NCBI GenBank assembly: GCA_013115125.1
Contig: JABANN010000401.1
Location: forward strand, 1 to 32,534
DNA from: Perkinsus olseni
Lineage: Eukaryota
Direction: 5' to 3'
DNA: 32,534 nucleotides
Shown: positions 1,138 through 26,687 of the stretch, in pieces
How positions within the stretch are numbered: position 1 is the first letter of the stretch
How the letters are laid out: every line of letters starts with the position of its first letter
The notes under the pieces: model-generated
What the model was told of the DNA's origin: nothing
Database searches by the model: none
Seen by the model: only the letters and a program-made list of their open reading frames with translations
Made by a program: the position numbers and the translations under genes

Positions 1138-2042
1138 GGATCTCTGTATTATTCTTCATTTTCCCGTTGACAAGTTTTTAGTTCATTCGAACATTTCGCC
1201 TGTCGTTGATGTCATTCATCACCTCAGACAGTCACAGTCTGTCGTAGAATCGGTAGTTTTCCTGCTCCAGAGTTAATAATTTTTCCTGGAGAATCCCGAG
1301 AGTTTCGTTGATTGTACTCCGCAACGTGTTAAGCAAGCCTGTGGCAAGTCGCGATCAATCGGTCGCGTGTAAGCGAATTCAAAGTCCAACGCCGACAGTA
1401 TGGCTTAGTTAGACTAGTACCGAGGAACCTCTCTATGGGGGGAGCAGCTGAGTTGTTCTTTCGCCTGACTGATGTCGAGTTTTACTTGGGAAAGTCGCGC
1501 GGAGAACTAGGGAACCTCGCTGTGATGCGAAACTGCGCCGGATCTGCTTCGATGAAATATTGCCACGCTGCCGTCGAATGCACACCGTTTCGGTGGAGTC
1601 GGTTTCGGACTCGGGCTAGTCTACGAACAACCCTGGTTCAATTCCGAGAGCTTTTGCTCAGACCCATGCGTGTTGGCGTACGGACAACGTTGAATCGGGA
1701 TAGATAGCAAGTCAGCGGCCGGACTGTGGTTCTGGTTTCAGAACCGTTCAGGTTTCCCTCCCACCATGTTGTTATCGTGATTTAAGAGTCGTGTCCGGAA
1801 AAGGATTCAGACTTTGAATTAACACAATCGTCGAGTTCACCGAAATAAGCCACTCTACCGATGGTCAGTCGATACACGCAGGTGCATTCAATCCGGTGGG
1901 AAGCGTTACGATTGGGCAGTGCCAGGCAGTGCCGCAGTGCAGAGTCCGAGTAGAAGCCCAGCTCTCGCAGGGACACCGATGCCTGTTGTCAATGGGCTGT
2001 GAACCCCTCTTCGCCCCTATACGAACGCAACTTCGAACGCTA

Positions 2043-3582
2043 TCAGTAACGAATCCTTTTACGAGAGGTGGCGGATTGACTTTCCCGCCTATGAGTCTTG
2101 ACTGTGGCGTAGAGCTTGAGGTTGAAACGTGAGAGGGCCTTGAAGACAAGAATCAGCTTTACAGAGTGATCACTTCCTACCTGCGGGACTGCACTGATGA
2201 CTTTCCCGAATTCTGAGGCACCTTCCTTGTAAATGGTCGTGAGTGGAACTGAACAACAGCGGCCCTCAAGCTCGTACGGAAGCAGACACACGCCGGGGGC
2301 ATCAAGAACAGCGCGGACTGTAGTCTTCGGTGTCACAGTTCTTTAAGTTCATGTACGCATCAATCACACTTGGCAATCACAAAAATTCGTAAACAATTCT
2401 CAGCAAGTAGCAAACGTGCAATTGTAATGGTTCAACCTAGCGAGTTGCTTCACCGTTGAAGACCGCAAGGAAGTCTATCTACGACGGCCGACTCACTGCT
2501 TCTAATCTCGCATCCAGGCCGACTACGCAGGACGCATTTGTGAGGGAGAACGACTTGATACCTGCTCACGACGGAATCGCTACTTCGGCGACGCCAAGGG
2601 CTTACACTGAGATGCACTCCTTCGGGCGCTGGACGTATGATGGCAAATACGGATAGACGAACTCGTCGAACTCCGGACGCCAAAAAGTGAAGAGCTTCTC
2701 GCCAATCTGCGACGGAGCATGGAGCAAGGGAATCAGTGGCTCTAACATGTCGACTCAGCGCTTTGTTCCTGCCTTAGACGAAGCATAGAATTGCCAAGGG
2801 CAGGACTAAGCTTGGGACACACGCAGACGCAGGACGTCCTATTGGTGTGAATTCAGAAGGCCGGTTCGATGGTACTCTCAACCAAGAGGGGTCATGCAAG
2901 TAATCATACACGGCACACGAAGTGGTGCGAAATCCTTCAACGTCGAAGCCACACCGATAAGGACACGGAAATTGATTCGGCGGAGGAGGTAGAAGAAGAC
3001 CGGTTCCTCACCATCCATTCACATTTGCTCTGCTTCTCGTCAACTCGCAGGATGCATCTCCGCAACTTTCTATTCAAACAATCAATGTCGGTCTCACCCG
3101 GCGCAACCTTCCCGCCGAGCAGACGGTACCGGCACCACGCAGGCTGCACACCACTGACCATCAGAAGCCGTTTCGACACAACAGAAACGGAGCGCTCACC
3201 TCTGTGACGCCTCGAGTGAGTCGGATATTAGCAGATAGGGCTGCTCGTCGAAGTGACAGAGAACGACGGCGTAGCCAGTACCTGAGAATCGTTCGAATGG
3301 CGGAGGTGAGTACTCCTGCGTGCTCTATTTCTATGCGCGAATCACTCGAACTACCGTCGGAAATTTCGGATGCATCGGTGGATTTACGACGAAGAGCCTC
3401 TCTCACCAACCCTTCAACCTGAGGATTTAGTGAACCCTTTCTCAAGGCCCTTAAGAATGACGATTCTCAATGTCAGACCCTTAACGAAAGTGAGGAACCT
3501 ATAACAGCGCTTCCCGAGTCCTCTAGTTTCAAGTGTGAGGATACTAACCGCAAGAAAGACGCAGACCTTCGCTGACCGCCAT
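2043..3582 (-). CDS. NUDT21: Cleavage factor Im 25 kDa subunit (CFIm25/CPSF5)-like Nudix-fold protein, multi-exon
   Basis: Phase-consistent GT-AG exons 3200-3281, 3012-3153, 2606-2706, 2497-2561, 2181-2248, 2043-2138 give RTGYAVVLCHFDEQPYLL..YRLLGGKVAPGETDIDCLNRKL..W..GEKLFTFWRPEFDEFVYPYLPSYVQRPKECISVYQVVLP..IPLTTIY..FGKVISAVPQALSRFN. This parallels CFIm25 (LPGG..GE..; WWRPNF..YPY.P.H...PKE; YGPIISSLPQLLSRFN). The 5' exons (ATG 3582 plus short exons near 3390-3418 and 3479-3522) are tentative. Confidence 0.8.
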
Positions 3583-4696
3583 GCCAGCGACACTTCTCGG
3601 CGACGAGCACGTCCGCGAAATTTGATCCGCAATATGAAAAAACTAGTGAGAACCATAGTTCGCATCGCGTTCTTCACTCTGTTCGGTACAAAATGCGTAG
3701 AATACGAGAGGCGTTTTCCACTGATGGTTTGAAAGGCGAAGTCACTTCATGTTCGCGGCCAAACTCACAACGGAGTTTCCCCCACGACTTGAAAAATGCA
3801 TCTCACGTCGCGGAATTCACATTTGGCAGGTAAAAGCGCGTGAAACATGACGCGCGCCATGCTACATGCTATTTATTACCGGTGTAAAAAGCGAAGCTAC
3901 TTCTGCGAAATTAAGGGACGTTACGGACTCAAAACTCAGATCCCGGACTTACGCCGCATGCCCTCCTTCTGCCAAGCATCCAACCAACTCCTCCTCGGCG
4001 CCCCTAACGACTGACACGAACGACGAGAGTGTTTCCAACAACACAACCCTGAGCGAAAACTGAGTGGTTGTTCAACAAACAAATTCCGAGACTGAAAATC
4101 GATTCTATAACCGAATTTTAGGCGTAAAAATCACTCCCGCTATCGATTCTTCCAGAATTAGTTCAACGTACGGGGGAGAAGGGTGAAGTTGCTCGTCGAA
4201 CTCACCCGAAGATTCCCTTTCTCAGTCGAATTTGAGCGGGACGGCTGCATGTCGTAGTTGCACAAGTCGTAGACCTGCCAATCGGGGCTCGCCACAGCCA
4301 TTAGGTGAAGAAAACTAGCGGCAGTAGCACGTGGCAAATCTCGATAACGGAGGAATATACAAAAAATTGGTATCACTTTTCTCCTTGCAACGAAACACCG
4401 TGAGTAAAATTCGAACAGCAGTTTCCACGTTACTCCGAGTTTGAAGCTACTGGCCCGTGCTCTTGTTGACGAAGTACACGGCGCGGATTGGCCGTGTTGA
4501 CCTTGAGCCCTTATTTGAATATCCCAACCGAAGTCCGGATAAAGGCTTGCATGAGTCTACCGACTAGTCCTCAGCGATTCAGTATAAAATTCCGCACACT
4601 CCCTGCAACTCGCACAACACAGAAATAGAATGAAACGAAACACACATGGTCTTACAACTCTGGTGTAAAAATTCTGGGACCGCGCGCCACGAAATT

Positions 4697-7600
4697 CTAT
4701 GCCGTGTCCAGAATCATGCTCGCCGGGTTCTCAAGGTAGCTCTTGAAAGTGTTAGAGAAACGCGCAACGGTTGCACCTGAAAAAAAACTTCGCTCCGCTG
4801 TTCGCAGTTCGGACAGGAAAATTGTCCTCGCCTACACTGGAAGCGTCCTAGGTAGCGCCTCACGCCGCTAGAAACCGTTTCATCTTGAATAATGAATCGT
4901 TACTCACTGATTACCCATCATGAAGTTCACGTTTAAGGTTATTTCTAAATCTCTTTTTTTTCGTGGGATGTTCGGAACACAAAAAATTTCCAACCAAAAT
5001 TGAATGGTCGCCCTGTGAATTTTTCGCCCGCCCTGCTACATCGTCGAAGCACAACACAAGAGCAGCGCGATCACTTCTCGATCGTTTAATCGCGGTGAAT
5101 AGTGTTGGCATTCCACATCACGGGCGAAAAATTCCGAATTCGGTCTTTTTCGCTCTTTTCGCGGGCTCACTAGTGAGGTTACTGAGCAATCGCTCTCACG
5201 ATTCAGCAATTCCGTCAAAGCCACGCTTCAACCTTGGATACCACTCACCATCGATATGCCGATGGTCGGCCGACCACGACACGTTCACGATCTTCGCCGG
5301 ATACACTTCCGAACCGTCATCGGTGAACCTACCACACCATCTCACTTTTCACGCGCCACGAAATTCATAAAAGAGCAACTCACAACATAATCGATCATCA
5401 TGACGCGCGCTATTTCCACCTCTCCCGCCTCACCTAGGTAATGTCCTTATCCTTCCTGCTCCACCAATAAGAGCTTGGCCGTCAAACAGAATAGATTTCG
5501 AGTAGGTTCCTCCGATGACTCCGACGTTCGAGAAAGATACTGTTCCGCCATGTACGTCGTCCACGGTTAATCGACCGGCAGCAGCGCGCTCCTGAGACTC
5601 CGAAAAATCAAATTTTTGACTCAATTAAAATCAATGCTCGTCTTGGAAAATCCCAAAAATTCGGGAAAAAAACCTAAAATTCCCGCCCCAAGGAATAATA
5701 ATAAAAGGAAAAATTGAAAAAAATCGAAATTTGTCCGAAATATGAGGAGAAATCCGTACCAGTTTTCTACAAGAATGGTGCGCCATTCAAACGTACCGGA
5801 ATGCCTAGCGGAGCGAAGCGCATAAAAGAATTTTTCTCAAGGATACACAGCTCCAAAGATCTCCCTCTCCCACCTGAATTTCGAGAATGTCTTTCTGAAT
5901 CTGCACCAGAGATTTTTTCTCAACTCCCTTCACGTTCGGTACCACCAACCCTGAGGGACTGTCAACGGCCATGGAGATATTATGATGGCGATACACAGTA
6001 AAAAACTCGCCCGACCTGACAACTCATGACCGCGCGCCACGAAATTATTCCAACTCACGGGTCGATTTTGGAATTTAGCGTCTCGTGTTTGAGAAGGCTC
6101 AGTGACAGGGCTTTGATCATAATAGCCGTCAGCGTGATTGAAGGCAGATTGTGCGGCGGGCCCTGGACTAGCTTCTTTAGGTTAGCCTGGAAAATAATTT
6201 CGTGGCGCAGTGACAAAACCAACACTAATCTACTGAGAGCCAGACATGATTCAGAAACCACATTCCGCATGAAATCGATCACATGATCGATTCCAGAAAA
6301 TTTAATTCGAAATCCCAGTCGAATCCGCCCTAGGATCACTAGAAAATTGAACATCGATAAGCAGCCACTCTGGCCAAGTACATAAAAATCATAGAACGTA
6401 TCACCCCCACAAACATTACAGCAGGGTCGTTAAGTGAACCAATTCTGAAACCGGATTTTACGTTTGAGAACAATAAATGCCGTTTACGAAGTAGACAAGG
6501 TTAGTTGTCAGCCGTATCGGTGTCACAACGGCGTGCGGGACACGCGCGCGTTACAAGATGCTCGTGTCGGTGTAACCGTCGGCGTAGCGCGTTGCGCTGT
6601 TACGGTCGGTTTACGTATCTCGTAGTTAAGCGATTTTATTCCTCTTTCTCGGCCATTCCCGCCACTCCCGGGGCTGGATCTCGTGAGTTCTCCCATTCCG
6701 CAGCCGCGCTTTGGCCGGCTCGCTGCGCATTGGGGGGAACCCACGCGATCTGGCGTCACCCGCTCGGAGCACTTTCATCGGAGTCCCAAGATGCGGCCTG
6801 CAGTCCGGCCCAGCGTACGGGTCGCAGGTTCAGCGTTTTCGGGTCTCAGGTTTGGTGCTCTCGCGGGTGCGCTGCGCTGTTCCCATACTCCCCGGGAGGG
6901 CTTAATGCTGTAGATCGAGGCGGTTAAACTAATAGTAATATACTAGTCAATATTATATACCCACCATATAGAAAATGATATAAATATAAACCATATAATA
7001 TTATTGGACCGGGGGAGGGAATCAGTCACAGTCCGCTCACATCGGTATCCGCACATCGGTGATGCGGGTCTAACTAAGCCTAAGCCCTGTAAGTCCTTGA
7101 CGTTGGACTTGAAACTCACTCACACAGTCCGCCTACTCACACTTCGCACTACGCTCGCAATACCCTTCGAACGCCCAAGCCCGTGAGCACCCACGCAGGA
7201 CTACCTGCACCCTCAACAACTCGTCCACGCGTATTTCCTCGCCCAAGTTCATATGAGGGGCACCCAGCGACGCCGTCATCGATTTCACCATAGCCGCTGC
7301 CACGCCCCGGGTCAGAGACACTCGGTAGGACTCGGACGTATCCTGCGCCTTCGCCACAGGAGCAACCTCGTCAACCTTCGACGCCGCTGCCGCTGCCTTG
7401 AGAATATCATCCATCAAAACCCTTCCGTCGGGACCTGAAGACGCCCCAAATGATTCTACATAACTGAATCATGATAATTTCTCATTAGACCAGGTATTCA
7501 GTAGATAATTTTCCCCGATCATAGAGGCGAAAAATTCATAAATTTAGAATTTTTTTTCTATTTTCTGCTTTGGAAATTCGCTAGGTAATTTCCCTCCTGA

Positions 7601-10600
7601 GCGATTCCACAATCATCTTCCACACGTTCAGCTCAATTATGGAGATCAGGAGAGGCTGTCTATCAAACACCCCCAAAGTTTCGCTCCGCGAGAATCTCCA
7701 ACAGCAGGACAACACGCACGATTCTAGGAAATTGGATATGATAACTTAATATCGAACCGAGTGTCGGTGCCACGAAAAGTTCCGCCCAACTACCCTTCCT
7801 TTCAAAGCCTCCCTTCCCATTGGCCCACCACTATCATATAAAATCTAGTCTACGTCACGCTACATTCTTATCGTCATTATTTTATAATTTCGTTATTTCG
7901 GTTTTTTGTCTTGTGATGTCTATAATAGCACTAATTCTTGATATCGTGATAGACCTCATCACGAAGTCCCTTAATAATGCACAATCAAACACAGTGCCGT
8001 ACTCAGGGGTGGGCAAATTGGGCACTTGCCCAGGGGCCCCGAAAGGACTCCCACTCGGAAAGGGCCCGAAGTGGGACCGCCTCCGCCCGACGGGGGGGCC
8101 TGTGTGCTCGATTTGCCCAGGGCCCGAGCTTTCGAAAAAATCGAGAGTACGGCACTGATCAAACACTCCCGGCTACTACCAGTGCCAAGAACAGAGTTGA
8201 TCTCGATTCCCTTCTCCTTCGCCGCCTGTCTCACCTTCGGAATGGCCAGCGCCCGACCCTCCTCCTTCGCAGCTCTATTGAGCTCTGAGCCGGAAAGCGA
8301 ATCATAGGTCGACTAGTGCAAGATACAAGTATAAAGATACCAATCGATAGCTCCTTTAAAAAACGTTCATTTCGATCGCCACTTTTCACATCATCAGTCC
8401 TCCTTTTCCAACGAAAGATTCGGCTACCCTTGCGCTACACAAAATTAAAGATACCCCCAACTTACATCAAACCACCTTCCAGCCAATTCCTAACCCCTCG
8501 AACAGACCAACTCGAAACTACTATGAAAATTCCTGCCAGCTGGTATATACTGGAGTTTCGCCCGTAATACGCGAAGTGGCTTTTTTTCCACATACCGAAA
8601 AACGCAGAAATCGCGATGTAAAATGTGTTTTCCATATCGCGGGCAAACTCCAATGATCACGAAAAATACCCATCAGTTATCTCTGCCTTTTAACCCGTAT
8701 CCACTTTCCCGCCTCATGGACCCAAACCCTCGAGACTTATGCTCGCGACATTCCCCGCGTCCCGAGCCATTCGCCCTCTACTACCCGTCTCAACAGCTTC
8801 AGGCTGCTCGACCTTCCCAGCCGCCACAGGCTGTCCCTCCCCCCCGTCCAAACCCTCTACTTCAATATCCACCAGAACCGAACCGACCTTGGCTGTATCT
8901 CCTACTTTATACCTGCCGGCCTCCCAGATCGATAATTTCGTGGCGCAGTGACAAAAATTCTTACCCTAAGCGCCTGATTACACCATTGTACCGACTGGTG
9001 ATGTCCACGACCGCCTTGTCGCTTTCAACGGTACAAATCCGGTCCATCTCTTCTACGCGATCTCCTGCAAGAATCAAAACTCGCACCCCGACTCTGCCGA
9101 CTGAACGAAATGTCTACCTCTCTAACGGAGCGATACGCACAGTACTCTCCAGAACCTCCGAGTTCTCATTTTCCGATTGGAAAATTTTGATCTTCCCGAT
9201 TTTTTTGAAGACCCTCCCCCATTACTTCTTCCAGGACAAATCAGATTTACACGATAACACCACTGAATCAAAAGTCGAAATTTCTCGCAAAAAAATTTTC
9301 GAGAAATTCACCAATTTTACCGAAAATTTCCCGAAATTCTCCCAGGGCCATCGTTTAAGACCTTCTCCAACGTGCCACTCCATCATCGCCACTTCGCTGA
9401 TCCCCTCTCCAATATCCGCAAGATGAAACGGCACAATTTGACCGCTGGTCTGAGAGGCAGGCAACACCTCGCTGGTCTCCTCCGTCTTTGAAACGCGGCC
9501 TGAAAAATATTGGTCAATGACAGTTGAGAGAATCGAACCAAGGCCCTCCCCAGAGCTGAATTAAACCCTTAACCACTCTACCACCTGCACTTTCCTTAGC
9601 CGGAGTCTCCTCTACCCCGTGCGTTTCCTCCTCTTCTATCTCCAACAAAACGTCCCCAACTTTGGCAATGCTATTCACATCGAACAACAAACGTTTTACC
9701 GTACCGCCGTACCTGAGATACTCTGAAATTCCAAATTTCGTGGCGCGCGAGAAAAAGCACCTGCTGGTGATATCCACCGCAGCCTTGTCGCTCTCAACCG
9801 TACAAAGACGATCCATCTCCTCGATCTTATCACCTGATCATATAAACCCGTACCACACCAATCGCGACTTCCCCCGAATTTCTTCCCGCTCGACACCATC
9901 ACCCATTCCACACTGGTTCGCCAGAGACCTAAGACTAGCTGGCTTTCCACCAGCGCTCTGCGGAGCACTGATAAGACCGGCGGAAACTATAGATCGGCCT
10001 GCGCTCGCGGGCGCGTTTGGCTGGTTAAGGTTGACAAACGTTTCACTCGTGATTCGTATTAAAGCATACCATGGCAGACGCGTATAATTCCGCTTCCACT
10101 CAAAAAAACGGCGAAAAATCACAACAGGAGAGACACTACCGCAACCACTTGATAATAATACACCAATAAACATCTTGCGCAGACATACAACACTGTCAAC
10201 CCGGTTCTAAGATTCTCTCCAAGACCTCGAGCCAGAATACCCCTTTGATTCCTGTTATAACATAGAGCGTCTCCCTAATTCCATCAAGGTAAAACAAAGC
10301 GACAAAAGAAGCTCACTTTGAAGCGCACAATTATCAACCCAACGTGGCTGTGAGGACACTAGGCAGCAACGCCAAATTTCGTTTCCGCTATTCCTGATCA
10401 GTGGAGGTTCTCCCGTCGGACGTGAAGGGGCGTTCTTCGCGCGATGTAAAATGTCTTTTTCATATCGCGGGTGAAACTCCAGTGTTTCTATAGGACACTC
10501 TGCACCCGTTCTGCTAATTGCTAATTCAAGCTTGTGTTGCCAATAACTCAATTTTGTCAATTTTTTGTCAATAATTCAATTTTGTCAATAATTCAATTGC

Positions 10601-11424
10601 TTGTTTTCCTAATTGAACAGTTCAAATTTAACAGAATAGTTATCAGGAGTCGCGCCAACCCACACTACCCGGTTTCACATGCCACTCCATCACCTCCACC
10701 TGCGTGATACCTAAGGTGCGTATCTTCAGCTCAACCCTGCATCCGACAGTGACAAAAGATACCATCCCATCAATTCGAATCGTAATGCCGATTTTTCGAT
10801 CCCAGAATTGCCGACAAAATTCCCCCTACCAGACGAACAGCGGCTTCCAGCGAGTTCACTCCGCGCTTTACACCCGGCCATAAGAATTGAATTGCCCGTC
10901 CAGCAGATTTTCCAACAGTCAGTCTCGCCAATTCATTGATCGACGAGCTACCGGATATTGCTGTTTTGGTAACTCCCTATGCCTGATGGTACTATGGCCT
11001 ATGAATGACATCCCTGCCGTTGTCTCCATAATGGCGCTGCTAAGATTTGCTGCACACGAGCGAAAAAAAATTTTTAACAAATCGCGTCCCGAAAAACACC
11101 CCGCATGAACCCCAGAATTTCCGTCCAAAAAATTTGTTCTCGGGAGCATACATCCCGAGGCGCCCTATTCAAAGAAGAGGTCGATGCATGCTCAAAACAA
11201 GGAAAAAGATACCTATCCTCTCTACTCCCCGATAACTAAGATAAGACCTTCTCAAAAAAGAAACCCTCCCTCCACAAGTTCGGCGATTTCCCCTCAACAA
11301 GATCCCCTCCTCCCGATATACTACCCTCCCCGATGTCCGCCAACCTAAACGGTTTCACAGCTCCCAATACTGCCGTCCCTCGCCAGAACGATAGATGCCG
11401 GCGAGTGACCAAGCCGGACAGCAT
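4697..11424 (-). CDS. DBT: Dihydrolipoamide acyltransferase E2 of branched-chain 2-oxoacid dehydrogenase type; two lipoyl domains; 14 exons, ~543 aa
   Basis: Exons 11325-11424, 10669-10710, 9761-9833, 9585-9712, 9362-9499, 8965-9064, 8785-8912, 8180-8284, 7205-7434, 6059-6186, 5874-6015, 5434-5591, 5249-5328, 4697-4776 total 1632 nt, in frame, all GT-AG. Product: Arg-rich presequence [16 protein letters not shown]; two copies of [10 protein letters not shown]...[26 protein letters not shown]3-binding domain [31 protein letters not shown]; catalytic [17 protein letters not shown]. Confidence 0.93.
7992..8157. mobile_element. 166-bp non-autonomous DNA transposon (MITE), hAT-like, in E2 intron 8
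   Basis: Perfect 13-bp TIRs CAGTGCCGTACTC (7992-8004) / GAGTACGGCACTG (8145-8157). Exact 8-bp direct repeat ATCAAACA at 7984-7991 and 8158-8165. GC-rich interior with GGGCCC/GCCCAGGG sub-terminal motifs. Confidence 0.9.
9934..9970 (-). mobile_element. Helitron-like 3' terminus in E2 intron 2
   Basis: Minus strand reads CAGTGCTC-CGCA-GAGCGCTG (8-bp hairpin, one G-T), a 12-nt spacer, then CTAG followed by T. The 5' TC end was not located. Confidence 0.5.
10541..10598. repeat. Short AT-rich tandem repeat, ~17-bp unit CAATAATTCAATTTTGT, about 3 degenerate copies
   Basis: Directly visible periodic sequence in E2 intron 2. Confidence 0.7.
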
Positions 11425-12765
11425 GAGAACAACAAAAGGAACTTCAAGACCCAGTCTAGACAGCCCCTCGGTAGGAGTAGCAGCACATTGTTGCACAACT
11501 CGCCAAGAACCTCCGATCTCGGAAACACTTCACGATTCTATCAGATTCGGTACTGATGGTCAGCGAGCGCTCTGTTCTGAAATCACGAGGGTTCCCGGTT
11601 GTGGTCCACAACTTGTGGACACCTGTGAAGTTGACCCTCCACTAACCGATAATAAATGTTGTGGCCCTCATTCAGCACTAGGAGCATAGCAATGACCGTG
11701 ACGGCTGCAATTTACTCCTTAGGTTCCAAAATGAAGCCCAGAAATGACCGATTTTCACCTGAGCCCGTCGCCTATCAGCACCATCTGGTTGATTCACAGC
11801 CAAAAACGAAAACCCTTCTTAGCAAACCTACCGAATCCTCGCACAAGTCTGACTAGTACATGTGGTCTACGCGTTTTGCACCTGCCGAATGTGAATTTCG
11901 CGACGTGAAATGTGAAATGCGTCTTTTTACTAGTGTTTCTCATATCGCGGGTGAAACTTGAGTGATGCGTTAAACGCGATTTACACGCGCCACTTAACGA
12001 TAAAGTACTTGTTTCACAAGAGGCTCTCTATGTTTCACGCGATGAAGCCTTTTCTGCGATGTGTTATCTCGCGAGATGCTCCGATTTCGTGCTATTTCGC
12101 GCTTTTCGCGTTTTTCACTTTGCGAAAAACGCCACTTCCCCATTACGGGTAAAACTCCATTATTATCCGTTCATCACCAATATCTGAATTTTTCCATTCA
12201 ACTATGTATCCTTCACGGAAAATTCATATTGCACATGCGCTCCTCCAAGATTGACTTTTTCATGCATTTTTCTTTAATTGCTTCAATTTTCATCAGCGAA
12301 CGCCACCGAACCATATAACAAACTCACATTAAACATATACTTCCATACTACACTAACTCTCCGCCGGTAAGCCAGCTTCTTTCAAGCGACGAGGAAAAGC
12401 ATCTCAGCGCGGAAAACTCACAAAATCGTCCAAGGCAAGCATCGCCACTGCAACCAAATCCAACCCCAGAATTGATCGTCAGGTAGACGACATAAACGCA
12501 ACTTTCCTGTCGCCGTCAGAGTCAGTTTTCGGCCCGAAAAAAGGAGGACTGATAGTTGTACGTGGAAAATAAACCCACGAACGCTCCTCTTGAATAGTAG
12601 TATTATGTTTCCGAATGTTAATGACTAACAATATCAACATCAATCATCAATAACCTTAAAACCACAGCCGATCGAACGCCGACTGCACGCCGGGAAAAGG
12701 CACACAGCTCCCCCCGCTTGCTTTCCTCCACCATCCTGACGCAACCTTCCTTACAAAATGCCTTC

Positions 12766-15292: not shown

Positions 15293-15473
15293 AAACAACC
15301 AAAGTGGGAGTCAACTTCTCGAACTTTCAAAAAATGATAGCCGGAAGAAAAAAATAACACAACAAACCGTCTTCACTGGTAAATAGAAACAACACTGTAT
15401 AAGAAAGAAGGCGTATCTAACCGTTTCACACGATCTTTCCGCACTGCCAAGAATTAGCTGCTCTCCTCGTTAT

Positions 15474-18400
15474 TCACTGTTCGCCCTCGTCTTTCTCGGC
15501 TTCCTTCTTCTTACTACCCAGGGCCACTGCGATCAAATTCGGATGGTACTTCAGAGACGCACTAGCGGTAGCGCTGGCTTGATCAATCGAACCTAATAAC
15601 GATCAAACAACATCCACTCGGTACATTCATGATTTTAAGGATAAAAACGACATCTGTGAGATTCGAACCCGAGACCTCGATCATCAAATGACCTTACAGA
15701 CAGACGCTCGAGAGATGGACTCCACATACGACTTTAAATCGATCATAGGCGTATCTTTTCATCCGTATCTTACCAGCTGCGAGCTGCTTCAACACTAGAA
15801 TGTTAGAGAGTATGACTCTCCTCATCTGCTGTACATCCCGCCTCGTCCTCGCGTCGACCATAGATCGCTTCCCAACTTGGTCCAAGAAAAATCCTGTGCG
15901 GTTCATAGACTCTATGCTATTCAACACGATCTGTTGCAGGCCTGAAAATCACACAAAAATCTCGGCGGAGCGATGCAGAATACTCCCCATAGAGAATCTC
16001 GTTCACAGTACATCAGGCGAACAAAAAATGAAAGTGAGAGACTCGGAGATTCCCTCGCTGGGATTCGAACCCAGGATCTCCTAAAACTAGGAGCTGGCTG
16101 AAGTCTCATAACTGCGTCCTATCCAGCCTGACCATGTTTGTGGAAGATGCCCACGGACGTAGTAAAGAAAACGCAAGATTGCAAGATTTCAAGTTGGTCA
16201 TCCTTCGACCCACTCACCCATGTTGGTATCAGATTGGTCCTTGCCAGTCACCGCCATCGCTGTCGATTGGAGGAAATCCGCAAAGGTAAGCTCGTGAGGA
16301 AGACGATAACTGCGGGCGAGCAATTCCGAAATTGCGAATAAATCGCGCACAGTGGATCCCAACAGCCTCCGAGGCACTCAATCAAACACCCGCTTCAAAT
16401 CTTCCGACCGCGCGCCACAAAATTGAAACCCCTTAACCGAGGAATCTTCCACCCCCTGACCATCACCTAGATATTAGAGTCTGTATCCTCACGGCGAATC
16501 GCGAGGCGATCGACTTGGCCGCGGCCTCGGTCGGAGCACTCATCAGGCCAATGTACTGAAGGGCTAGTAACATACGGAAGGAACCTGGGCAAAGACGAGG
16601 TCAAAAGATACGCTTCGAAGACATCGCCACTCATACTGGCTCGGTAGGACACTCTATTAAAGTTGAAGCGAACGATGTCAGAGAGGTAAAGGTTTCTGAG
16701 CTCTACGGCGAATTTGAAGTTCCGATTTTTATGCTACCTACGCTACCACAACCATTCTGCTGCGACGAGTAGGCCGCACCTTTTACCCAAGCCTGCACGA
16801 CGTGAAAACAAACTTCATGTGAGCACTCCAACAATCTCTCTTTCGCACAGTCGCTCAGGATGAGACACGTCCTGCTCGAGATCTATCTCCTCGTCAGAAA
16901 ATGGCTCATTCAACGGCAATGATGACTATGTACCCGCGGCCCTCATCGACACTACCCTGAATGATCTCCATCCTAGCTTGCAACAAGGCCATGTCGTTGG
17001 TGGGCTCCGGGGGTGGTAGTTGGCGATTCTTCCGCTCACTTCGTCGAACGTGACGGGGCTTGGAGGCAAGATCCAGTGCAGACGCCATTTCGCGGAGGGC
17101 GTAGAGCTGAGAGGGAAAAAGGAGATGGTGTCTCGGTCGGTCAAAAGACCGAAGGGTTAGTATAATCGATAGGGAATAGACAGGTTGTCTCAATAAAGTC
17201 GACCTAATCGATCAAGATACTTAACAAAGTTGACCTAATCGATTGAGATACTCAATAAAGTCGACCTAATCGATCAAGATACTCAATAAAATTGACCTAA
17301 TCGACCAAGATACTCAAGAAAGTCGACCTAATAGATCAAGATACTCGATGAAGTTGACCTAATCGATGAAGATACTCAATAAAGTTGGCCTAATCGATCA
17401 AGATACCACCAAACCATCCCCTCTTCCCCTCCTCATTACCCTAACACCAATGAGATAATCCTCAAACCACAAGAGCATCGGCATCTCCTCGCTGTCGGCC
17501 AATCCGAGCTCGAAAGTGAGCTGCATCTCAATCTGCATCAGACTGATAGCCTGGTCCGTAACCCAGGTCCAAGTAGACTTCTTAAAGGCCAAGCGCTTGC
17601 CGTAGTTGATCTCGAGCATTTCATCCATGCCAAAAGCCTGATCGAGAACAAATACCACACTTTCACCTACTCACCTGAACCCCTCATCACTTGACTTTGC
17701 ATAATGTTGTACTCGGGGATGAGCTTAGGAATCGCTCGATGCTGCCTCGATCGACTCTTGAGAAGAGTCCTGGCACGCAGCTGGGTGATGCGAACGCAAT
17801 TGGACAAAACTCCAGCGGAGAACTCTTTATGTGCGGACCAGACATCACTCGGCACGCCCATACACTGGAGGGAATCCTGAGAACGTGAGAGATGCAAGCA
17901 TGGAAAAAAGATATTTTCCCCAACACACGACGCTAGAGTAATACCAAAACTTCCCCGTTTCTCGCCAAAGCACGGCGACTGCGCAATACAGACAGAGGCG
18001 ATGAGGGTCCCAACCGCGGGATGATAGAAAGATCTTTTTCACAGCTCCCGTAGAGCATCATTCTACAAAATTCAAATGCGATACGACGTTATCAGTACTA
18101 CTCATCGCGAACGTATCTCGTTACCCTCAAGGAGATTGGTTAAACCATTTTTAGCTCAACCCCAACTCAACCTCCCTCGCATCATGCACGCTTCAACCTA
18201 AGATTCCCTGATGCCCACCTTAACAAGTGCCTCCATATCGATGGTGTCCATGAGACGCAAGCTGGTGATGGCCCGGGCGAGGGGCTGCTCAGCGGCGCTG
18301 CCGTGACGAAGATCTTCCAAAAAATGCTCCAAGTTATCGAGAGTGTTGACCCTCGATAGACCCTCGAAGGCGTAGCCGATATCCGTCAACAGCGAGTCCA

Positions 18401-19245
18401 TACTCGAATACGCATCCTCGCGACTCAACGAGGGCACTTGGCGCGGCGGTCCTGACATCAACCAATTTCCAATAATGCACACTACACGAACCCGCACGAG
18501 TTCTATCCTCACCTGGGGGCATATCATCATTATTGATACTAGCATCGAACAGCCTATCAAGCTGCTTCCTTCTGTCCTCATCTTCTGCCAGTACCCCATC
18601 CCGGCCCCCCATCTGCAAGGCGTCCAGTACTTCACTGACCGTCGCCATAGTGCATCCCTCGTTCTTGCTGGTCTGGACGCTCTCCAATATCTTCTCGAGC
18701 GCTTCAAAAGCCGCTATCCTCTCGCCCAGACAGTCGGCCACCGCCGGAAGCTTCTTCTGATCGAGGTTGGCTCCCAGCAGGGCCAGCGGGGCGTCCTCAT
18801 CGGCGACAACCTCAGATTCAAGCATGATGTCGCGGGCCAACCACGAGCATCTCAGCGCTAAGTTGAGGAAATACTTCAACCCTTCATGATGGACCGAACC
18901 GAGATCATGGCAAAGCAGGCACGACCAAACCGTCTGCAGGGTCGTGTTACCGTTAAAATACAGGTACACCATAGCAATCATCCCATCGGCGACGTACTTA
19001 GCATCATCATCGCTCAGCTCGCCGATTTCCGCCATAACCGTCTTCACGTCGGGCGTCTGGTGCAGACCAACGTCCATCTTGGGCTGCATCAGTTCGATGG
19101 CGCTCATGGCCTCAAAGGGACTGTAGTCCTCGCCATGCACTAGCTGGCCCAACCTCATAGAAGAGCAAGCGTTGGTGAGGGTGTTCGTGATGTCGGTCCA
19201 ATCGCCATCGCTGTGCTGAGCGTAAGCGACAGTGGCTGCTGGCAT
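15474..19245 (-). CDS. NAA35: N-terminal acetyltransferase C auxiliary subunit MAK10/NAA35; 9 exons, ~665 aa
   Basis: N-terminus WTDITNTLTNACSSMRLGQLVHGEDYSPFEAMSAIELMQPKMDVG and FNGNTTLQTVWSCL match the Mak10 domain. Exons 18513-19245, 18219-18451, 17691-17876, 17440-17637, 16956-17106, 16467-16584, 16218-16309, 15774-15941, 15474-15592 total 1998 nt in frame. Later motifs include SRSRQHR and TFELGL..EE...W..DYL. Confidence 0.9.
16050..16137 (-). mobile_element. tRNA-derived element (SINE head or tRNA pseudogene) in a MAK10 intron
   Basis: Minus strand: A-box-like TGGTCAGGCTGG, D-stem GTC/GAC, long variable-arm hairpin CTCCTA-GTTT-TAGGAG, intact T arm CTGGG-TTCGAAT-CCCAG. Acceptor and anticodon stems do not pair. 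Confidence 0.55.
17189..17405. repeat. Minisatellite, 7 x 31 bp (consensus CTCAATAAAGTCGACCTAATCGATCAAGATA), in MAK10 intron 4
   Basis: Seven contiguous units starting at 17189, 17220, 17251, 17282, 17313, 17344 and 17375, with substitutions only and no spacers. Confidence 0.95.
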
Positions 19246-19661
19246 TCGGGAAGGTGTGATAAATAGAAACTGATTCCCAACACCGCTTTCCGCGCTTCTA
19301 CGGACCCCTTCCTGATTTCTGAGAAATCCCTGCATCAACCTAAGATTCATGCAGCTCCACCAGTTCATCTAGCTGTCTCGTCTCGCCCCTCCCAAACGCC
19401 CCGAACGCCACCTTTTTTCGAGCCAGAACGAATCCAGTGCCCATCCCGTCGTTGAGAGCTTTCGGACCCTCCCCTCCATGAAACACACTACCTCCCTCAA
19501 GTCGCTGTAGTGACGTATATCCGCCTCTAAGAAGCCGCACGACGTAGCAGCAAGTCTCCCGCACGGATTGTAAAAAGCGCGCGCCCGAAAGATACCCCGC
19601 GTGTCACCCATGCGTCACGCAGACGAGCTCGTTCACTGTCCACTCACTGTCGATCGTGAAT
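19246..19661. promoter_or_regulatory. Compact divergent intergenic region between MAK10 and the DMT transporter (candidate bidirectional promoter)
   Basis: Head-to-head start codons about 415 bp apart. CG-rich motifs (GCGCGCGC, near-palindrome TGCGTCACGCA at 19611-19621). Function inferred from position only. Confidence 0.4.
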
Positions 19662-20744
19662 ATGACGGTGTCTCAGCCGGAAGGTAAAGAGACTGGCGAG
19701 AATCTTAGCTCGATCAGTGCAAGATTCGTGCGCTTCATCGAGAACATCAACTTTTGGCCGTTAATTACTATTTTTGTGGGCTCGGCCATTCTCCAAAATC
19801 TATGCTTGGACCAGATCCGCAACAACGGTGGTGGTGGTAAGGATACTGTGCACCTTCTAACCTTCGCCGCCAACGCCTTGGGTAACCTTCTAGTCGGCTT
19901 CCTGCCGGCTCGAAAGCCCTGGTTCAAGTGTCACTGGCGTCGAGCTTTAATTCCGTCAGCAGTGGACCTCGTCTCGCAAGTGCTCATCCAATTCGGCGTT
20001 GTTCTAGCAGGCGCACAAATCTTCACAATCCTGTACAACTCCTGCATTGTGTGGTCGGTCGTCTTGGCTTTCGTTTTCCTCAAGACCCGCTTCTCATGGT
20101 GGCAGATTGCCGCCATTACTGTGGTCATCGTCGGCGTTGGCATGAAGTCCTTCGTAAACACAGCCTCTGGCTCCAACTCGCTGATACTCGGCACTATCCT
20201 CATTCTCTGTGGCTGCCTCATGCATTCTCTCACTAACATCATAAATGAATACTACATCAAAAGATACGATTTTCCGCCAACACGCTTGGCGGGTTTCACT
20301 GGTCTTTACTCGATCATAGCATACGCCGTTTATTTTATCGCGTGGTCTTCCTGGCGTATTCAAGAGCAAATAGTTGACGAAATTCACGCGAACGATTCCA
20401 CCGTCTCCTGGGTTGCACTCTGGTACTTCCTCTTCACGTTGGCCAACTTCCTTCACGCCGCTGGTTTCTTCCTCCTACTCAGTCGTATCGGAAACGTGGG
20501 CACGGCGATCACTAAAGGGCTTAAGACTGGCACGTACGTTTTTATATCGCATGCCATCTATTGCTCTTCTAACGACAAGTACTGCGTTTTCCCTCTGGAC
20601 CGTTGGCAGCGCACGTTGACGCTTTTGTCCGCTATTCTTTCGATTGCGGGTGTTATCGCCTACGGTTATTCAACCAAAAAGTACAACCAAGCAAAGGCCG
20701 AGAAAGAGAAGTCCAAGATCGTCGACGATGGTCAGGGTGTGTAG
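19662..20744 (+). CDS. Drug/metabolite transporter (DMT) superfamily, nucleotide-sugar/SLC35-like; intronless, ~360 aa
   Basis: About 10 hydrophobic helices. ALIPSAVDLVSQVL..G...AG.QIFTILYNSCIVWSVVLAFVFLK..FSWWQI..I..V..G follows the DMT pattern. First ATG is at 19662. Confidence 0.85.
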   Translation: MTVSQPEGKETGENLSSISARFVRFIENINFWPLITIFVGSAILQNLCLDQIRNNGGGGKDTVHLLTFAANALGNLLVGFLPARKPWFKCHWRRALIPSAVDLVSQVLIQFGVVLAGAQIFTILYNSCIVWSVVLAFVFLKTRFSWWQIAAITVVIVGVGMKSFVNTASGSNSLILGTILILCGCLMHSLTNIINEYYIKRYDFPPTRLAGFTGLYSIIAYAVYFIAWSSWRIQEQIVDEIHANDSTVSWVALWYFLFTLANFLHAAGFFLLLSRIGNVGTAITKGLKTGTYVFISHAIYCSSNDKYCVFPLDRWQRTLTLLSAILSIAGVIAYGYSTKKYNQAKAEKEKSKIVDDGQGV

Positions 20745-22158
20745 CTTGCGATAATTCGCTTAAGAGAGGAGATCGCCCCGCCGCAGCGTCAATCGCTTTC
20801 TTGATTGTTATTACCTGGTTTCCCTCAACGTTGGGAGTTTCAGTAGAGTATATTTTATATCAGCCGATTATCCTTATGTTTCCATTCGTAACTATGAGGA
20901 AGTTGATGGGAAAATTGTCTACTTCGAGCGGTGCTTCTTGCGTTATGTTTTAACGCTGATTTTACGGATCTCCAGCTGCTGCTTGTTGCACCACTAGAGC
21001 TCAGGAAAAACATCGAGCAAGAAATTACTCAGTAGGAGTTCTACTTCGGCAAGTGAATGCAAATGGTTGCTAGTTTTATCGACGAACGTTCGCTGTCGTA
21101 TCATCAGAGCGCTCCGGGAGTGTGCCCAACTGAGCACATCGGAGAGAGTCATAGTGAACCGGAGGCGGCGTTGGGCTATGAACATACACACGTCGTGTTT
21201 GACTGGTTCAAACTTTTTTCGGCTACTTACCGCAGGAATTTTCAGCTTCACGCTAGTGCCATGAAGGTCGCTACTGAGAGCGTCCGAAGGCGCAGGGAGT
21301 CTTAAGTTGACTAGAGTATATCGCAATTCTTACTGCGATCGCCATTGACAACCCTGAAGTCCCTTATTTTGTCGAATTTTCGATAAGACGCTCCGCAGTT
21401 CACAGAAGCTCGGCACTAGTATCTTTAATAACGGGGTTGAAACGAAACAAGAGGGTTCGAATGGTTGAGCAGCTCTTTCGTGAGATTCGAAAATCCACAA
21501 GCTGGAACCTTTTGTGTCCCCGGCAAACTCGTTGAACATGCATGAGAGGAAAGAAGAAAAATCGACGTTTGAACGATTGAGTTCAAAGATCGTTGTAATT
21601 AGCAGTTTTCACCCGAGTAGCCTCATCAACTACTCGGGTTCAGGAGACTTCGGCTTCTGATTTGCAGTTCAAGCTGCGCGGGTGAATGATACTGCGGTTG
21701 TGTGCGCTGTCTCCATCGGCTAACACGCGATAAATTACCATAAAATACAGTACATACCATAATTTCATCAATTCTTAAGATATCCTCATGCGACTAGACT
21801 GTGCGGTGAAGTGAATTTTGAGCCTGTTGAATACAGAATTGCGAAGATCTGTGACCGTGTGGGTCTAGTATATCTATCTTCGAGAATCTTTGACCACACG
21901 CAAGTGCCAGTACACTAACAGATCGTAAGTGCCTACAGGAGAACCATGAAAAAACTTTAACCAGGTTGACTAGTTTTTTTCTTCACGTGATAAAAGATAC
22001 GCTCTGGCATCGTCATCGCGAAATCTGCGTATTTTCTAGCTATTCCCGTCCGAATCTTGCGCAGCGACTCTCACATCCGTACGGACGCTTTGTGTTCAGT
22101 GGATACTAATGACCCCAATTTTTTACCCTCAATTTTTTCATTTCTTTTTTCCATTCGA

Positions 22159-23010
22159 ATGTCCGCCGCAACAACTGTAGCCTCACACACGGATGGGTAT
22201 ACCGTGAAAAATACTTTTCTTGATTTCATCCCGCGGTACGCCCGTCCAAGGAGTGTCTCCTCGCCCCAATGGTGCTCCGCTACGCCGACTACCACCACGG
22301 TAACATCAAATTTAACTACCACTTCCAGCGACTACTATAAACCCGGTACCGTTTCTAATAACAACAAGTATGACGACGATCCCCTCAGCCCTGTCATCGA
22401 GGCCTCTTGCGGTAGCACTTGTTCAACCAACGGTGATGGCGAGGTCAGCAGCGTCGATCGAGGTTGTGACGATGATGGTTTGGTCCCGGGAACTACTACT
22501 GTCACTCTCCGAGATTTGCCACCGAGTTTCTCCGCTGACACTCTCGCCAACTTGCTCACGGACTTCCGCGGTCGGTTCGATTTTTATTATGTCCCTCTAA
22601 CTTTTCGCACTCGCACAAGCATCGGCTATGCTTTTGTCAATTTTGGTACTCCCGAAGACGCCCTGGCATTCTACGACCGTTTTAATGGTGCACGAGTCAG
22701 CTCTGATGATGATGATGATGATGAAGACGCCAAGCCCATGGTAGTCACCACTGCCCACGCTCAAGGCTTGGATGCTCAGATCGCCCTCCTCCGCAACAGT
22801 CCAGTGAACAGCGGCGATTCCCCGGCGTTCAAGCCACGTAGGTTCGAGCTTGGTACTGGCAGACCACTGGAGTTCCCTCATGCCGAGTTCGTGCCGAAGA
22901 GAGGGCATTCGCATCGCTCACGACATCGCCAGCGAAGGGCACATCCCTCAGCGGCTGTTCGCGAACGCCAATTTTTTGGTTATTCGTCGTCTTTCAGTCA
23001 TGTCCATTGA
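22159..23010 (+). CDS. Mei2-like protein with a single C-terminal-type RRM (RRM_2); intronless, ~283 aa
   Basis: TTVTLRDLP...GRFDFYYVPLTFRTRTSIGYAFVNF...F...F.G...AHAQGLDA...RNSPV..FKP is the Mei2 RRM3 signature. N-terminal YTVKNTFLDF. A GAT microsatellite encodes poly-Asp. Confidence 0.88.
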   Translation: MSAATTVASHTDGYTVKNTFLDFIPRYARPRSVSSPQWCSATPTTTTVTSNLTTTSSDYYKPGTVSNNNKYDDDPLSPVIEASCGSTCSTNGDGEVSSVDRGCDDDGLVPGTTTVTLRDLPPSFSADTLANLLTDFRGRFDFYYVPLTFRTRTSIGYAFVNFGTPEDALAFYDRFNGARVSSDDDDDDEDAKPMVVTTAHAQGLDAQIALLRNSPVNSGDSPAFKPRRFELGTGRPLEFPHAEFVPKRGHSHRSRHRQRRAHPSAAVRERQFFGYSSSFSHVH

Positions 23011-23499
23011 AATTTTACTGACCTGTTTTGTATCATCATCATAATCGTCATCATCCTTTTGTCGTCAAGACGTTCGCACTGCTCAGGGAAGAGTACAGGT
23101 CTCTGCGACCATTCCCTAGACGTTACCGCAGGCGCCGTACTACCTTACCCAACCCAATTTTTCTGAACTTTCATCACGGTCGAAGGATGTCAGTATTAGA
23201 ACATCATTTGCTTACTCATCATTGTAGTCTATTACCACACAGAATGACCTACAAAAACAACTTCGTGACCAACCACTGTGTTCTGCGTTTACTAGGAGAG
23301 TCTTCCCCCCCGGGCAAAACTGCGAACGCAAATATCCAAAGGAAGGCATGCACATCGTCAAGGGCTAGTTTCAGTGCATAGCCGCCGTCGCCGTTGCGGA
23401 CGAGGAAAGTAAGCTCCTCGGCCTTCTTGGACGAATATGTCGCACCATGTATGCCCTTCTTCACAAACGTTTTCCGGCCTTCCTTCATGAGCGGCGCAT

Positions 23500-24910
23500 T
23501 CGTGTATGTGAGTGAGTTGAGAGCCCAACGTCTACGACAGTACGGCTAGACTAGTTAGACTAGCACCACCGACGTACCTCCCTAAGGGGGATTAGTTCAG
23601 CCTGTTGAATAGGCCCTGTTCATGAAGCCAAACAACGTTGCTCTCAGAACAAGGCCATCGTCAGCTGGGGAATGTTCTTTCCTCCTGGCAGAATCCGCTT
23701 CCCACAGCTGCGGGAGCTGAGCACTACCACGAAACACTAGCCCATCCCGCAGTGTGTCGACCACAAGCATCATCTCCGAGACTCGAAAAAGTCCATACCC
23801 TGGCTTAGACTCCCTCTTACCGAAAGCTGACATTCTTACTGGCAGAGGCATGAATCTCATGTCATCCCCTCGTGTTATGCATTCGTGAAGCGATAAACTT
23901 GTCTGTCCGTTTAAAATCGGGATACATCGGTGCTCATCTAACTAAGCCGATATCCGACGTTGGGCTTTAAACTCTCACAAAAAGGCAAGTATCTGATTCA
24001 CCCCCATAGAAAAGCATGCACATCATCAATGGTTGCTTCGCCATGGTCGTTGGATGTTCTCATTCTAGTAGCCAAAGTACAGACTGTAAGATTCCCTTCG
24101 CTGACTACTGTTATATGGTTCTTGGCCTGATCTGGTTGCGGGACATAAGGAGACAGCTGAAGAGTAGAAGATCAACAACACTCGGGAGGCCTCCTTCCAC
24201 TCACCGCCTTCATCGCTTGCTTTATGTGGGCGACGCCCCTCGCCACAGCATCGTTATGAACTACGAGAAGTCTGCTGCTTTTCAGTGCCTGCAGAGCATC
24301 GTCGTCGCTCGCCCCTCGACTGAGTTAACCCTTGCCTGAGGCATCGCTTGATTCACCGGTTTAACGAGGAAGGTCGCATCAGCAGCGTCCTCTGCACGAT
24401 GGAGGGCGTCCTGAACCAACACTGTGAGTGTTGCTGTGGAGAAGTCGTCGTTCCACCTGTATATCACTATTAGCATTTTCCATAGCATCGCCCTGACCCC
24501 AGCATCGTAACGCGTTACCAACACCCGACTCCTTCAAGGGTAGCAAATCTCCTGGCAGGTCGGCAAAGTGGCGCAAATACTCATGTAAAACCATTAGGCT
24601 TCTGAGGGGTGCCGACGTGGAACAAAACGAGCAAGCGAGGGATAGACTTCGGAAGAGGCTTTTTGAATGGACCGGTGATTGGACGAACTGCCAGCTTTAC
24701 CAGCAACACCCCCGAGGTTCTGCGGATTCTGCCGCTACGAAGAGATACCCCAGCTGACGATGGCCTTGTTCTGAGAGCAACGTTCTTCGGCTTGATGAAC
24801 AGGGCCTATTCAACAGGCTGAACTGACCCCCCTTAGGAAGGTACGTCGGTGGTGCTACTCTAACTAAGCCCTACTGTCGTAGACGTTGGACTCTAAACTC
24901 ACACACACGA
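23500..24910. mobile_element. ~1.4-kb segment bounded by ~200-bp imperfect inverted repeats (probable transposon remnant or two inverted copies of one repeat)
   Basis: 23500-23698 is the reverse complement of 24722-24910, with long identical blocks such as CAGCCTGTTGAATAGGCCCTGTTCAT and AACGTTGCTCTCAGAACAAGGCCATCGTCAGCTGGGG. No clean TSD and no intact internal ORF. Confidence 0.7.
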
Positions 24911-25273
24911 TGGGATGTGCCTGTGAGTTTATAGTCCAACGCTTGCGGTTCCGGCTTAGTTAGACTCGAAGCCGATGTGCTCAGTTGGGGACTCTCGGTA
25001 GCGTTGACATGCCGTGCAATCAGGCAGATTGTCAAGAAGCTCTCTATCGACATCACACATGGGCTAGGTGATACCGATTGATCTGCTCTCTCTGACGCGG
25101 GTCAGCTCGGCTTCGATCGTCAAGCGTCATCAGCCCTTCCACAAACTCTCATTATGACGAACCTCCAATGAACTCAACAGACTTTTATCGTGAAAATTGA
25201 GTGACAGAAAATGGAAACTCCGACCCTTACGGACCGGAGGTGTAAAATAAATCTGGATGGAGTGTCGAACGAA

Positions 25274-26509: not shown

Positions 26510-26607
26510 TCAACTTCCGGCTCAAAACCCTACCAGGAAAACTCCACGCGCACGCGTGCCAGCTTTGCGCGATCGCGCAAGCCAGTGAGGGGATCTTCAA
26601 CAAACCA

Positions 26608-26687
26608 ACTCTGAAACTCAGAATCGATTCTGGAACCGCATTTTACGCGTAAAAATCAACTCCAGAATCGATTCTCAGTTCCAGAGT
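26608..26687. repeat. 80-bp palindromic mini-element; related degenerate copy at ~4071-4160
   Basis: 27-bp arms ACTCTGAAACTCAGAATCGATTCTGGA / TCCAGAATCGATTCTCAGTTCCAGAGT (2 mismatches) around the palindrome TTTTACGCGTAAAA. Confidence 0.8.

Follow-up and report, generated by a model that had tools for sequence, protein, structure and literature searches.

Seven one-ended repeats in a Perkinsus olseni contig are probably 5′-truncated copies of a dispersed retroposon family

The 32,534-nucleotide contig JABANN010000401.1 of Perkinsus olseni (assembly GCA_013115125.1), which we analyzed over its whole length and call the window, contains POT, Mak10, RRM and three CRT-like (chloroquine-resistance-transporter-like) transporter genes that were recognized by Pfam, a minus-strand gene resembling an E2 acyltransferase, and seven copies of a short repeat, which we number by position as copies 1 to 7 (near 1372, 7051, 21127, 23500, 23922, 24841 and 24920). 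An earlier sequence-only reading of this DNA had described the repeats as a family of compact elements with conserved boxes, variable spacers and a stem, and had offered several interpretations: a structured and possibly catalytic RNA, a cis-element of a retroelement, or a mobile mini-intron. Our analysis favors the retroelement. We put the probability at roughly 0.62 that the seven elements are 5′-truncated copies, that is, the 3′ ends, of a dispersed target-primed retroposon with multiple subfamilies, dependent on either a long interspersed element (LINE) or a Penelope-like element.

An nhmmer profile built from the seven cores returned exactly seven matches in the window (E values from 3.3e-21 to 3.6e-13), at 24837–24912 (+), 23502–23582 (−), 7049–7129 (+), 24915–24986 (−), 1365–1434 (−), 23917–23985 (+) and 21128–21197 (+). 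All seven copies of the sequence-only reading were thus recovered, with coordinates agreeing to within a few bases, and no eighth copy was found in the window by this profile, the next match having an E value of 1.8. When the seven sites were aligned with MAFFT, the invariant columns clustered within the boxes. The core CGTTGG.CT is identical in all seven copies, and the 12-mer box TCTAACTAAGCC, which occurs exactly five times in the window, is exact in five of them; it is degenerate in copy 3 and interrupted in copy 4 by a 4-nt insertion (at 23548) that is missing from most other genomic copies. The spacers between the boxes differ in both length and sequence, as had been reported. The argument built on this pattern, that fixed boxes amid changing spacers do not look like the decay of a neutral repeat, is reasonable, and we infer that constraint acting on the 3′ end of the element itself, across its subfamilies, best accounts for the constancy of the boxes.

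The description of the copies as self-contained units of 60–90 nt did not survive closer comparison. All seven share one sharp terminus, made up of CGTTGGRCT, three bases, AACTCA and a short CA run (we take as sense the strand that reads CGTTGGRCT...AACTCA followed by the CA run), and similarity extends inwards from this terminus over 55, 70, 73, 83, ~120, 192 or 374 nt. BLAST comparisons of all the copies within the window gave the same picture, with similarity beginning at differing inner points and stopping at the common outer motif. Copy 6, which is inverted relative to copy 4, matches the latter's 3′ portion at 87.5% identity over 192 nt; copy 1 matches copy 6 at 74.7% over 83 nt; copies 3 and 5 show 74% over 70 nt and 76% over 55 nt, respectively; and the similarity of copy 2 covers ~70 nt. 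A CA-rich tail of the form ...CTCA(CA)n, with two to five units, is present in six of the seven copies. The individual copies are without terminal inverted repeats, and each has one end only.

The longest copy is copy 4 (23496–23887, −), which comprises 374 nt (23505–23878) with its terminus at 23505, and which we class with copy 6 (24713–24908, +; ~190 nt, terminus at 24908) as A-type. Copy 7 (24915–25052, −; E 2.3e-17), whose homology to other genomic copies spans 24922–25041, is B-type, as is copy 3 (21128–21197, +; E 3.6e-13), the most degenerate of the seven; the two have in common the inner stretch CCCAACTGAGCACATCGG (25 nt at 92%). Copies 6 and 7 stand tail-to-tail, 13 nt apart. Copy 5 (23917–23985, +; E 2.5e-16) is the shortest, at ~55–69 nt, and lies between copies 4 and 6 in surroundings that are otherwise single-copy DNA, with a depth ~1.8x single copy. 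Copy 1 (1366–1442, −; ~77–83 nt; E 5.6e-17) has its terminus at the low-coordinate end and sits downstream of the POT-family transporter gene (43–1137, +), and copy 2 (7027–7132, +; E 2.1e-18) consists of an 86-nt insert (7037–7122) with its flanking repeats.

Those flanking repeats are one of two good candidate target duplications, each of which abuts both the terminus and the inner boundary of its copy. In copy 2 the exact 10-mer CACAGTCCGC at 7027–7036 and 7123–7132 brackets the 86-nt insert, and in copy 4 the exact 9-mer GCATTCGTG at 23496–23504 and 23879–23887 brackets the 374 nt. When random anchors were given an equal search space, an exact 10-mer was found at 9 of 400. The remaining copies offer less: copy 7 has a possible duplication at 24904–14 and 25053–62 that agrees at 10 of 11 positions with one gap (read by eye), copy 1 has only the weak 6-mer CGCGAC, and the 8-mer CACGATGG at 24396, if taken as the duplication of copy 6, would enclose ~310 nt of single-copy DNA and is not convincing. 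No target duplication was found for copies 3 and 5. We regard the evidence from the duplications as suggestive, not conclusive.

To look beyond the window, we compared the contigs of four public sequencing runs of the same organism (X1, X3, X7 and X8) with positions 23000–25300 at 80% likeness; none of the listed runs is recorded as RNA, X7 is an RNA run only by conjecture, and we did not read its depths as expression. The contigs matching this 2.3-kb stretch numbered 296 (X1), 294 (X3), 125 (X7) and 555 (X8), far above what is needed to tile it. In X1, where single-copy stretches have a depth of ~112–116, the summed depth was 742–3465 over 23462–23846, 1154–3946 over 24694–24924, 17,633 over 24925–25001 and 4583 over 25002–25078. 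The A-type parts stand at 10–35x the single-copy level. Along copy 4 the summed depth is 17–31x single copy over 23539–23846 and ~1.3x from 23847, and in copy 7, moving inwards from the terminus, it is 157x (24925–25001) and then 41x (25002–25078). Because summed depth is not a copy number, we limit our claim to the existence of many further copies.

The contigs also show how the copies end. At the termini 24908 and 24922, 7–35 contigs per run continue into flanks that agree with the window at only 0.43–0.49, which indicates that the flanks are unique and the terminus is sharp: 7–8 contigs diverge after 24908 (agreement 0.47–0.49), and those running into unlike flanks at 24922 number 20 (X1), 25 (X3), 17 (X7) and 35 (X8). 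The consensus of the loose ends before 24922 finishes as a TG run in all four runs. At the inner end of copy 7, other copies continue past 25041 with an agreement of 0.62–0.70, so the copy in the window is truncated at that point. Joints leading from 25041 to 23677, with 30–33 other letters between, show that B-type tails elsewhere bear the A-type body of copy 4. No contig skipping an element (an empty site) was found among the joints listed, and pattern scans for further copies in metagenome contigs, prokaryote genome contigs and viral contigs returned none.

The region around copies 4 to 7 can be read in another way. A repeat search reports inverted arms (122 nt at 93% plus 41 nt at 90%) at 23507–23673 and 24745–24907, with the shared terminus facing outward on both sides, as would be expected if 23505–24908 were one cut-and-paste DNA transposon or miniature inverted-repeat transposable element (MITE) with ~170-nt inverted ends, the short copies being decayed ends of such units. 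Target duplications of 9–10 bp occur in some transposase families too. We nonetheless consider transposon ends quite improbable. All four runs show the interior (23847–24693) as single-copy DNA, the 9-mer repeat encloses just the left arm and not the whole 1.4-kb unit, the homology of the left arm extends ~150 nt past the inverted part, the 86-nt copy with its 10-mer repeat has a single end, and no transposase was found among the window frames scanned. The 1.4-kb inverted-repeat transposon as a specific candidate is rejected, given its single-copy interior and the left arm's own GCATTCGTG bracket, from which we conclude that the inverted pair represents two independent insertions; the apparent terminal inverted repeat of 122 plus 41 nt arises because copy 6 resembles copy 4 in inverted orientation.

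The same arrangements bear on which kind of element might have mobilized the family. If the autonomous partner were a Penelope-like element of the Chlamys/Naiad type instead of a LINE, with the mechanism otherwise the same, both the inverted and the tail-to-tail arrangements and the CA-repeat-like end would be accounted for: copies 4 and 6 lie in inverted orientation, the tails of copies 6 and 7 face each other 13 nt apart, and in one genomic contig an A-type body runs straight into a B-type tail of inverted orientation (joint 23776 to 25012). However, 835 nt of single-copy DNA separate the inverted pair, copy 4 has a bracketing repeat of its own, the window frames scanned include no GIY-YIG or reverse-transcriptase frame, and the portions of the Chlamys/Naiad paper drawn on here make no mention of Perkinsus or alveolates (PMC8557442). 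A Penelope-like partner in particular seems unlikely to us.

The sharp terminus, which reads TG... on one strand and ...CA on the other, could also be that of a long terminal repeat (LTR), and many copies with unique flanks would be expected of solo LTRs or of the ends of an LTR or tyrosine-recombinase (DIRS/Ngaro) retrotransposon. Copy lengths that range from 55 to 374 nt with one common end only are hard to reconcile with such elements. Moreover, the bracketing repeats are 9–10 bp, whereas integrase elements make target duplications of 4–6 bp. Nowhere in the window do two copies in direct orientation flank a coding body, and the window frames scanned revealed neither an integrase or recombinase domain nor one of a reverse transcriptase. 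We hold this origin to be very improbable.

We come back to the target-primed retroposon, whose signature the family carries in its common 3′ end, variable 5′ ends, duplications of 9–10 bp (in two of the seven copies), simple-repeat-like tail and unique flanks; together with the many copies, these features argue for the retroelement branch of the sequence-only reading. In the mechanism that we envisage, a master copy would be transcribed on the strand reading ...ACRTCGG...TCTAACTAAGCC...CGTTGGRCT..AAACTCA(CA)n, and an autonomous partner, LINE-type or Penelope-like and absent from the window, would supply the reverse transcriptase that binds the conserved 3′ module, comprising the two boxes, able to pair as an 8-bp stem, and the short CA-rich tail. 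A nicked target would prime cDNA synthesis from the CA-rich tail, synthesis would commonly stop early, leaving a shared 3′ end and differing 5′ ends, and a staggered second cut would generate target duplications of ~9–10 bp. We infer the RNA intermediate, the partner enzyme and, by analogy with stringent LINE/SINE pairs, the service of the boxes and stem as a recognition signal. If the boxes and the CA tail are indeed the signal read by the partner's reverse transcriptase, this would explain why the boxes are fixed across subfamilies while the spacers drift.

Several results weigh against this reading. No reverse transcriptase, endonuclease or transposon domain was found by Pfam in 49 reading frames of the window (10 frames of at least 150 amino acids and 39 of the remaining frames of at least 90 amino acids), and neither a Pfam match nor a relative, whether among 1.84 billion representative proteins or among longer proteins, was found for the 114-codon frame of copy 4 that stops immediately ahead of the boxes. 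A convincing target duplication was not found in five of the seven copies, the 9-mer of copy 4 is weaker evidence than the 10-mer of copy 2, and a 10-mer with at most one mismatch is found at 117 of 400 random anchors. The depth along the A-type part is roughly flat (31, 20, 28 and 17x), with no rise towards the 3′ end. The stem shows no covariation, with none of its eight pairs changed on both sides among the seven copies, and its folding energy is not significant: single-sequence z-scores range from −1.64 to +0.38 for the sense strand and from −1.28 to +0.84 for its complement.

The search for a partner or a small-RNA ancestor was otherwise negative as well. ARAGORN found no tRNA-like genes in the window, and Rfam, at E values up to 10, gave no tRNA, 5S, 7SL or small nuclear RNA match over 23400–25100. 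Because neither a partner domain nor a tRNA-like head nor an Rfam small RNA was found, the long copies cannot be called short interspersed elements (SINEs), nor the family a LINE. Two specific candidates were rejected. A GCTCAGTTGG-like stretch on the opposite strand of the B-type copies was considered as a tRNA-derived head, and was dropped because it has no ARAGORN or Rfam support and lies too far from either end. The minus-strand frame at 23597–23941 was considered as evidence for the end of a LINE open reading frame and discarded, having no Pfam match and no relatives, with copy 6 losing the frame upstream. The frame that crosses copy 7 likewise had no relatives found.

We turn now to the stem itself. 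The two boxes contain an 8-bp complementarity between AGTCTAAC and GTTGGACT, and the A/G change within it gives U-A in four copies and U-G in three, so that pairing is kept, as the sequence-only reading had pointed out; RNAalifold, given the seven copies, recovers the stem proposed there, AGUCUAAC with GUUGGACU, with −4.25 kcal/mol as its consensus energy. That the two most conserved boxes can form eight pairs in a row is unlikely by chance, such complementarity being matched by 70 of 20,000 random pairs of boxes from the window. Two of the pairs are G-U on the sense strand (in six and three of the seven copies) and would be A-C mismatches on the opposite strand, which points to the sense strand as the RNA. 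However, the stem can form in 89.3% of cells, a score that 500 of 500 column shuffles attain as well, and, with the missing covariation and the z-scores given above, the seven copies provide no statistical support for structure. The complementarity is thus present, and the claim of a structured RNA that was attached to it is not borne out. A second helix or pseudoknot, formed by the first box with the spacer after the second box, was dropped because the copies pair in differing registers.

Database comparison was no kinder to an RNA function. No Rfam family reached its gathering score anywhere in the window, and lowering the threshold to E values up to 10 over 23400–25100 brought only three weak microRNA-type matches and no ribozyme, which speaks against the proposed catalytic RNA. 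The best of the sub-threshold matches, to mir-192, scored 26.9 bits against a gathering score of 54, and can be attributed to copies 6 and 7, which, being tail-to-tail, form a 25-nt hairpin.

The proposal of a mobile mini-intron rested on the opposite strand, where most copies were said to read GTGAGT...TTAG. This observation was correct in outline: all seven copies have near their end a donor-like pentamer starting with GT (GTGAG in four, GTATG in two and GTAAG in one), followed 37–41 nt later by TTAG. One copy is genic. Copy 2 is contained in a 1018-nt intron, running from 7205 to 6188, of the E2-like acyltransferase gene, whose placement on the minus strand is based on an E3-binding domain scoring 21.6 bits, below the cut-off of 23.7, and on acyltransferase-like fragments. 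With the gene in this orientation, copy 2 shows its intron-like opposite strand in the sense of the gene, and a 43-nt GTGAGT...CAG intron, which matches the segment in size, adjoins the 1018-nt intron (read by eye). The splice donor and acceptor of the 1018-nt intron are, however, 83 and 849 nt from copy 2, which is a passenger in that intron and not itself an intron; the other six copies are intergenic. No short intron of the window matches the seven-copy profile, and in run X7, which is possibly RNA, no contig skips the GTGAGT...TTAG segment within 23000–25300, a weak negative since contigs drop rare forms. With six copies between genes and the genic one forming no intron by itself, the data do not support the mini-intron. 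Whether taken as a host or selfish structured RNA (a ribozyme or small RNA precursor) or as an opposite-strand mobile intron of ~37–41 nt, a function of this kind strikes us as extremely improbable, the box complementarity, the seven donor-like pentamers and the strand of the genic copy being offset by the lack of an Rfam match, of covariation and of significant z-scores on either strand, by the A-C mismatches that an opposite-strand RNA would have, and by the passenger status of copy 2. The 1018-nt intron (6188–7205, −) is itself unusually long, and also holds an AT-rich and a GC-rich stretch.

A long shot would give both strands a role. In this scenario the tail would be dual-purpose, with the stem on the RNA strand and the CA tail forming the signal by which one reverse transcriptase mobilizes several otherwise unrelated subfamilies, and with the opposite strand providing a ready-made intron of 37–41 nt, similar in length to the introns of this genome. 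If true, this would amount to a partnership like that of stringent LINEs and SINEs, of which Perkinsozoa have as yet no described case, and antisense insertions into genes would be partly spliced out, an early step on the way from retroposon tail to introner.

Several other features of the window deserve mention. The CRT-like paralogues lie at 19548–20744 (+), 25274–26509 (−) and 26825–28075 (−); two of them are in tandem, with DNA blocks 71% identical, and for one CRT-like gene the best protein relative is from P. chesapeaki (74% identity), with further matches in P. olseni and P. marinus. The 13-mer AATTTCGTGGCGC occurs eight times (seven exact, on both strands) against 0.05 expected, at 4684–4696, 5353–5365, 6034–6046, 6196–6208, 8934–8946, 9734–9746, 16412–16424 and 27354–27366; of these, one falls within the E2-like gene's 43-nt intron and another immediately precedes the acceptor of its 1018-nt intron. 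The 13-mer could be either a regulatory site or another kind of short repeat. At 17158–17437 there is a tandem array with a 31-nt unit, in seven overlapping registers of 65–91% identity. A second dispersed repeat joins 4061–4150 and 26586–26687 (90 nt at 79%), and within the latter region 26608–26687 is an 83% palindrome (40 + 40 nt) that resembles a MITE or foldback element. Similar segments of 29–35 nt are found at 23336–23364 and 24004–24032, flanking the 374-nt insertion, and 6 kb away at 30415–30449; the minus-strand frames at the first two have in common the peptide DDVHAFLW, and the segments may be remnants of a small gene family or of a pseudogene in an insertion-rich spacer. Finally, 8500–12000 combines direct repeats spaced 0.8–1.8 kb apart with a strongly negative GC skew, which suggests tandemly duplicated genes without a Pfam match.

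If the retroposon reading is true, its first use would be in repeat annotation for this parasite lineage, as the family is abundant, short and recognizable by its sharp 3′ end, and could serve for masking, for strain typing by the presence or absence of insertions, and for tracing the autonomous element. It would also reduce both the '1.4-kb inverted-repeat element' and the microRNA-like hairpin at 24878–24947 to by-products of neighboring insertions. In literature searches on Perkinsus repeats, introners and non-LTR elements (Repbase not included) we found no description of the family, and the only specific Perkinsus repeat families that we met there were the Dada elements.

The comparisons that follow draw on selected portions of the papers cited. 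The Dada DNA transposons of Perkinsus marinus are 4.7–11 kb long, code for a DDE transposase and have tRNA genes as their insertion sites (PMC3706591); the family described here, by contrast, is short and one-ended and shows no tRNA association. The introners of Amoebophrya, which belongs to a related alveolate lineage of dinoflagellate relatives, have inverted repeats at either end of the intron and direct repeats where exon and intron meet, each of them being an intron (PMC7789003). They resemble the Perkinsus elements in being short repeats associated with introns, the opposite strand of the Perkinsus tail looking like a short intron, and differ in that the Perkinsus copies have one shared end, are mostly intergenic and, in the genic case, do not define an intron. 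In the portions drawn on, Chlamys and Naiad Penelope-like elements are described as highly 5′-truncated, often with an inverted truncated copy alongside, and as biased in their insertion towards microsatellites, (CA)n being common in Chlamys; Naiad and most Chlamys elements are without canonical hammerhead motifs (PMC8557442). Our family resembles them in its strong 5′ truncation, its inverted and tandem arrangements, the lack of a hammerhead match and termini with (CA)n-type repeats, but no GIY-YIG or reverse-transcriptase frame is linked to the Perkinsus copies, and the inverted copies are split by unique DNA and look independent.

The remaining comparison is with the stringent LINEs, in which the element's own protein recognizes the 3′ tail, and with UnaL2 and UnaSINE1 of eel and the stringent LINEs of zebrafish, in which a conserved 3′ tail with a stem is, in the parts of these papers drawn on, critical for retrotransposition (PMC1636434; PMC4176376). 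Unlike the UnaL2/UnaSINE1 pairs, the Perkinsus family has no partner LINE found and no RNA polymerase III-type head, its stem shows no covariation, its tail is a short CA run, and its host is an alveolate parasite. Like the tails of stringent LINEs and SINEs, as far as these sources describe them, it has a 3′ module of ~60 nt that is conserved and may form a stem, followed by a short simple-repeat tail, and that is common to otherwise different elements. As a kind of element, then, the family is ordinary, and its two-box module, for which we found no described counterpart in alveolates, may reasonably be regarded as a candidate signal for recognition by a reverse transcriptase in that group.

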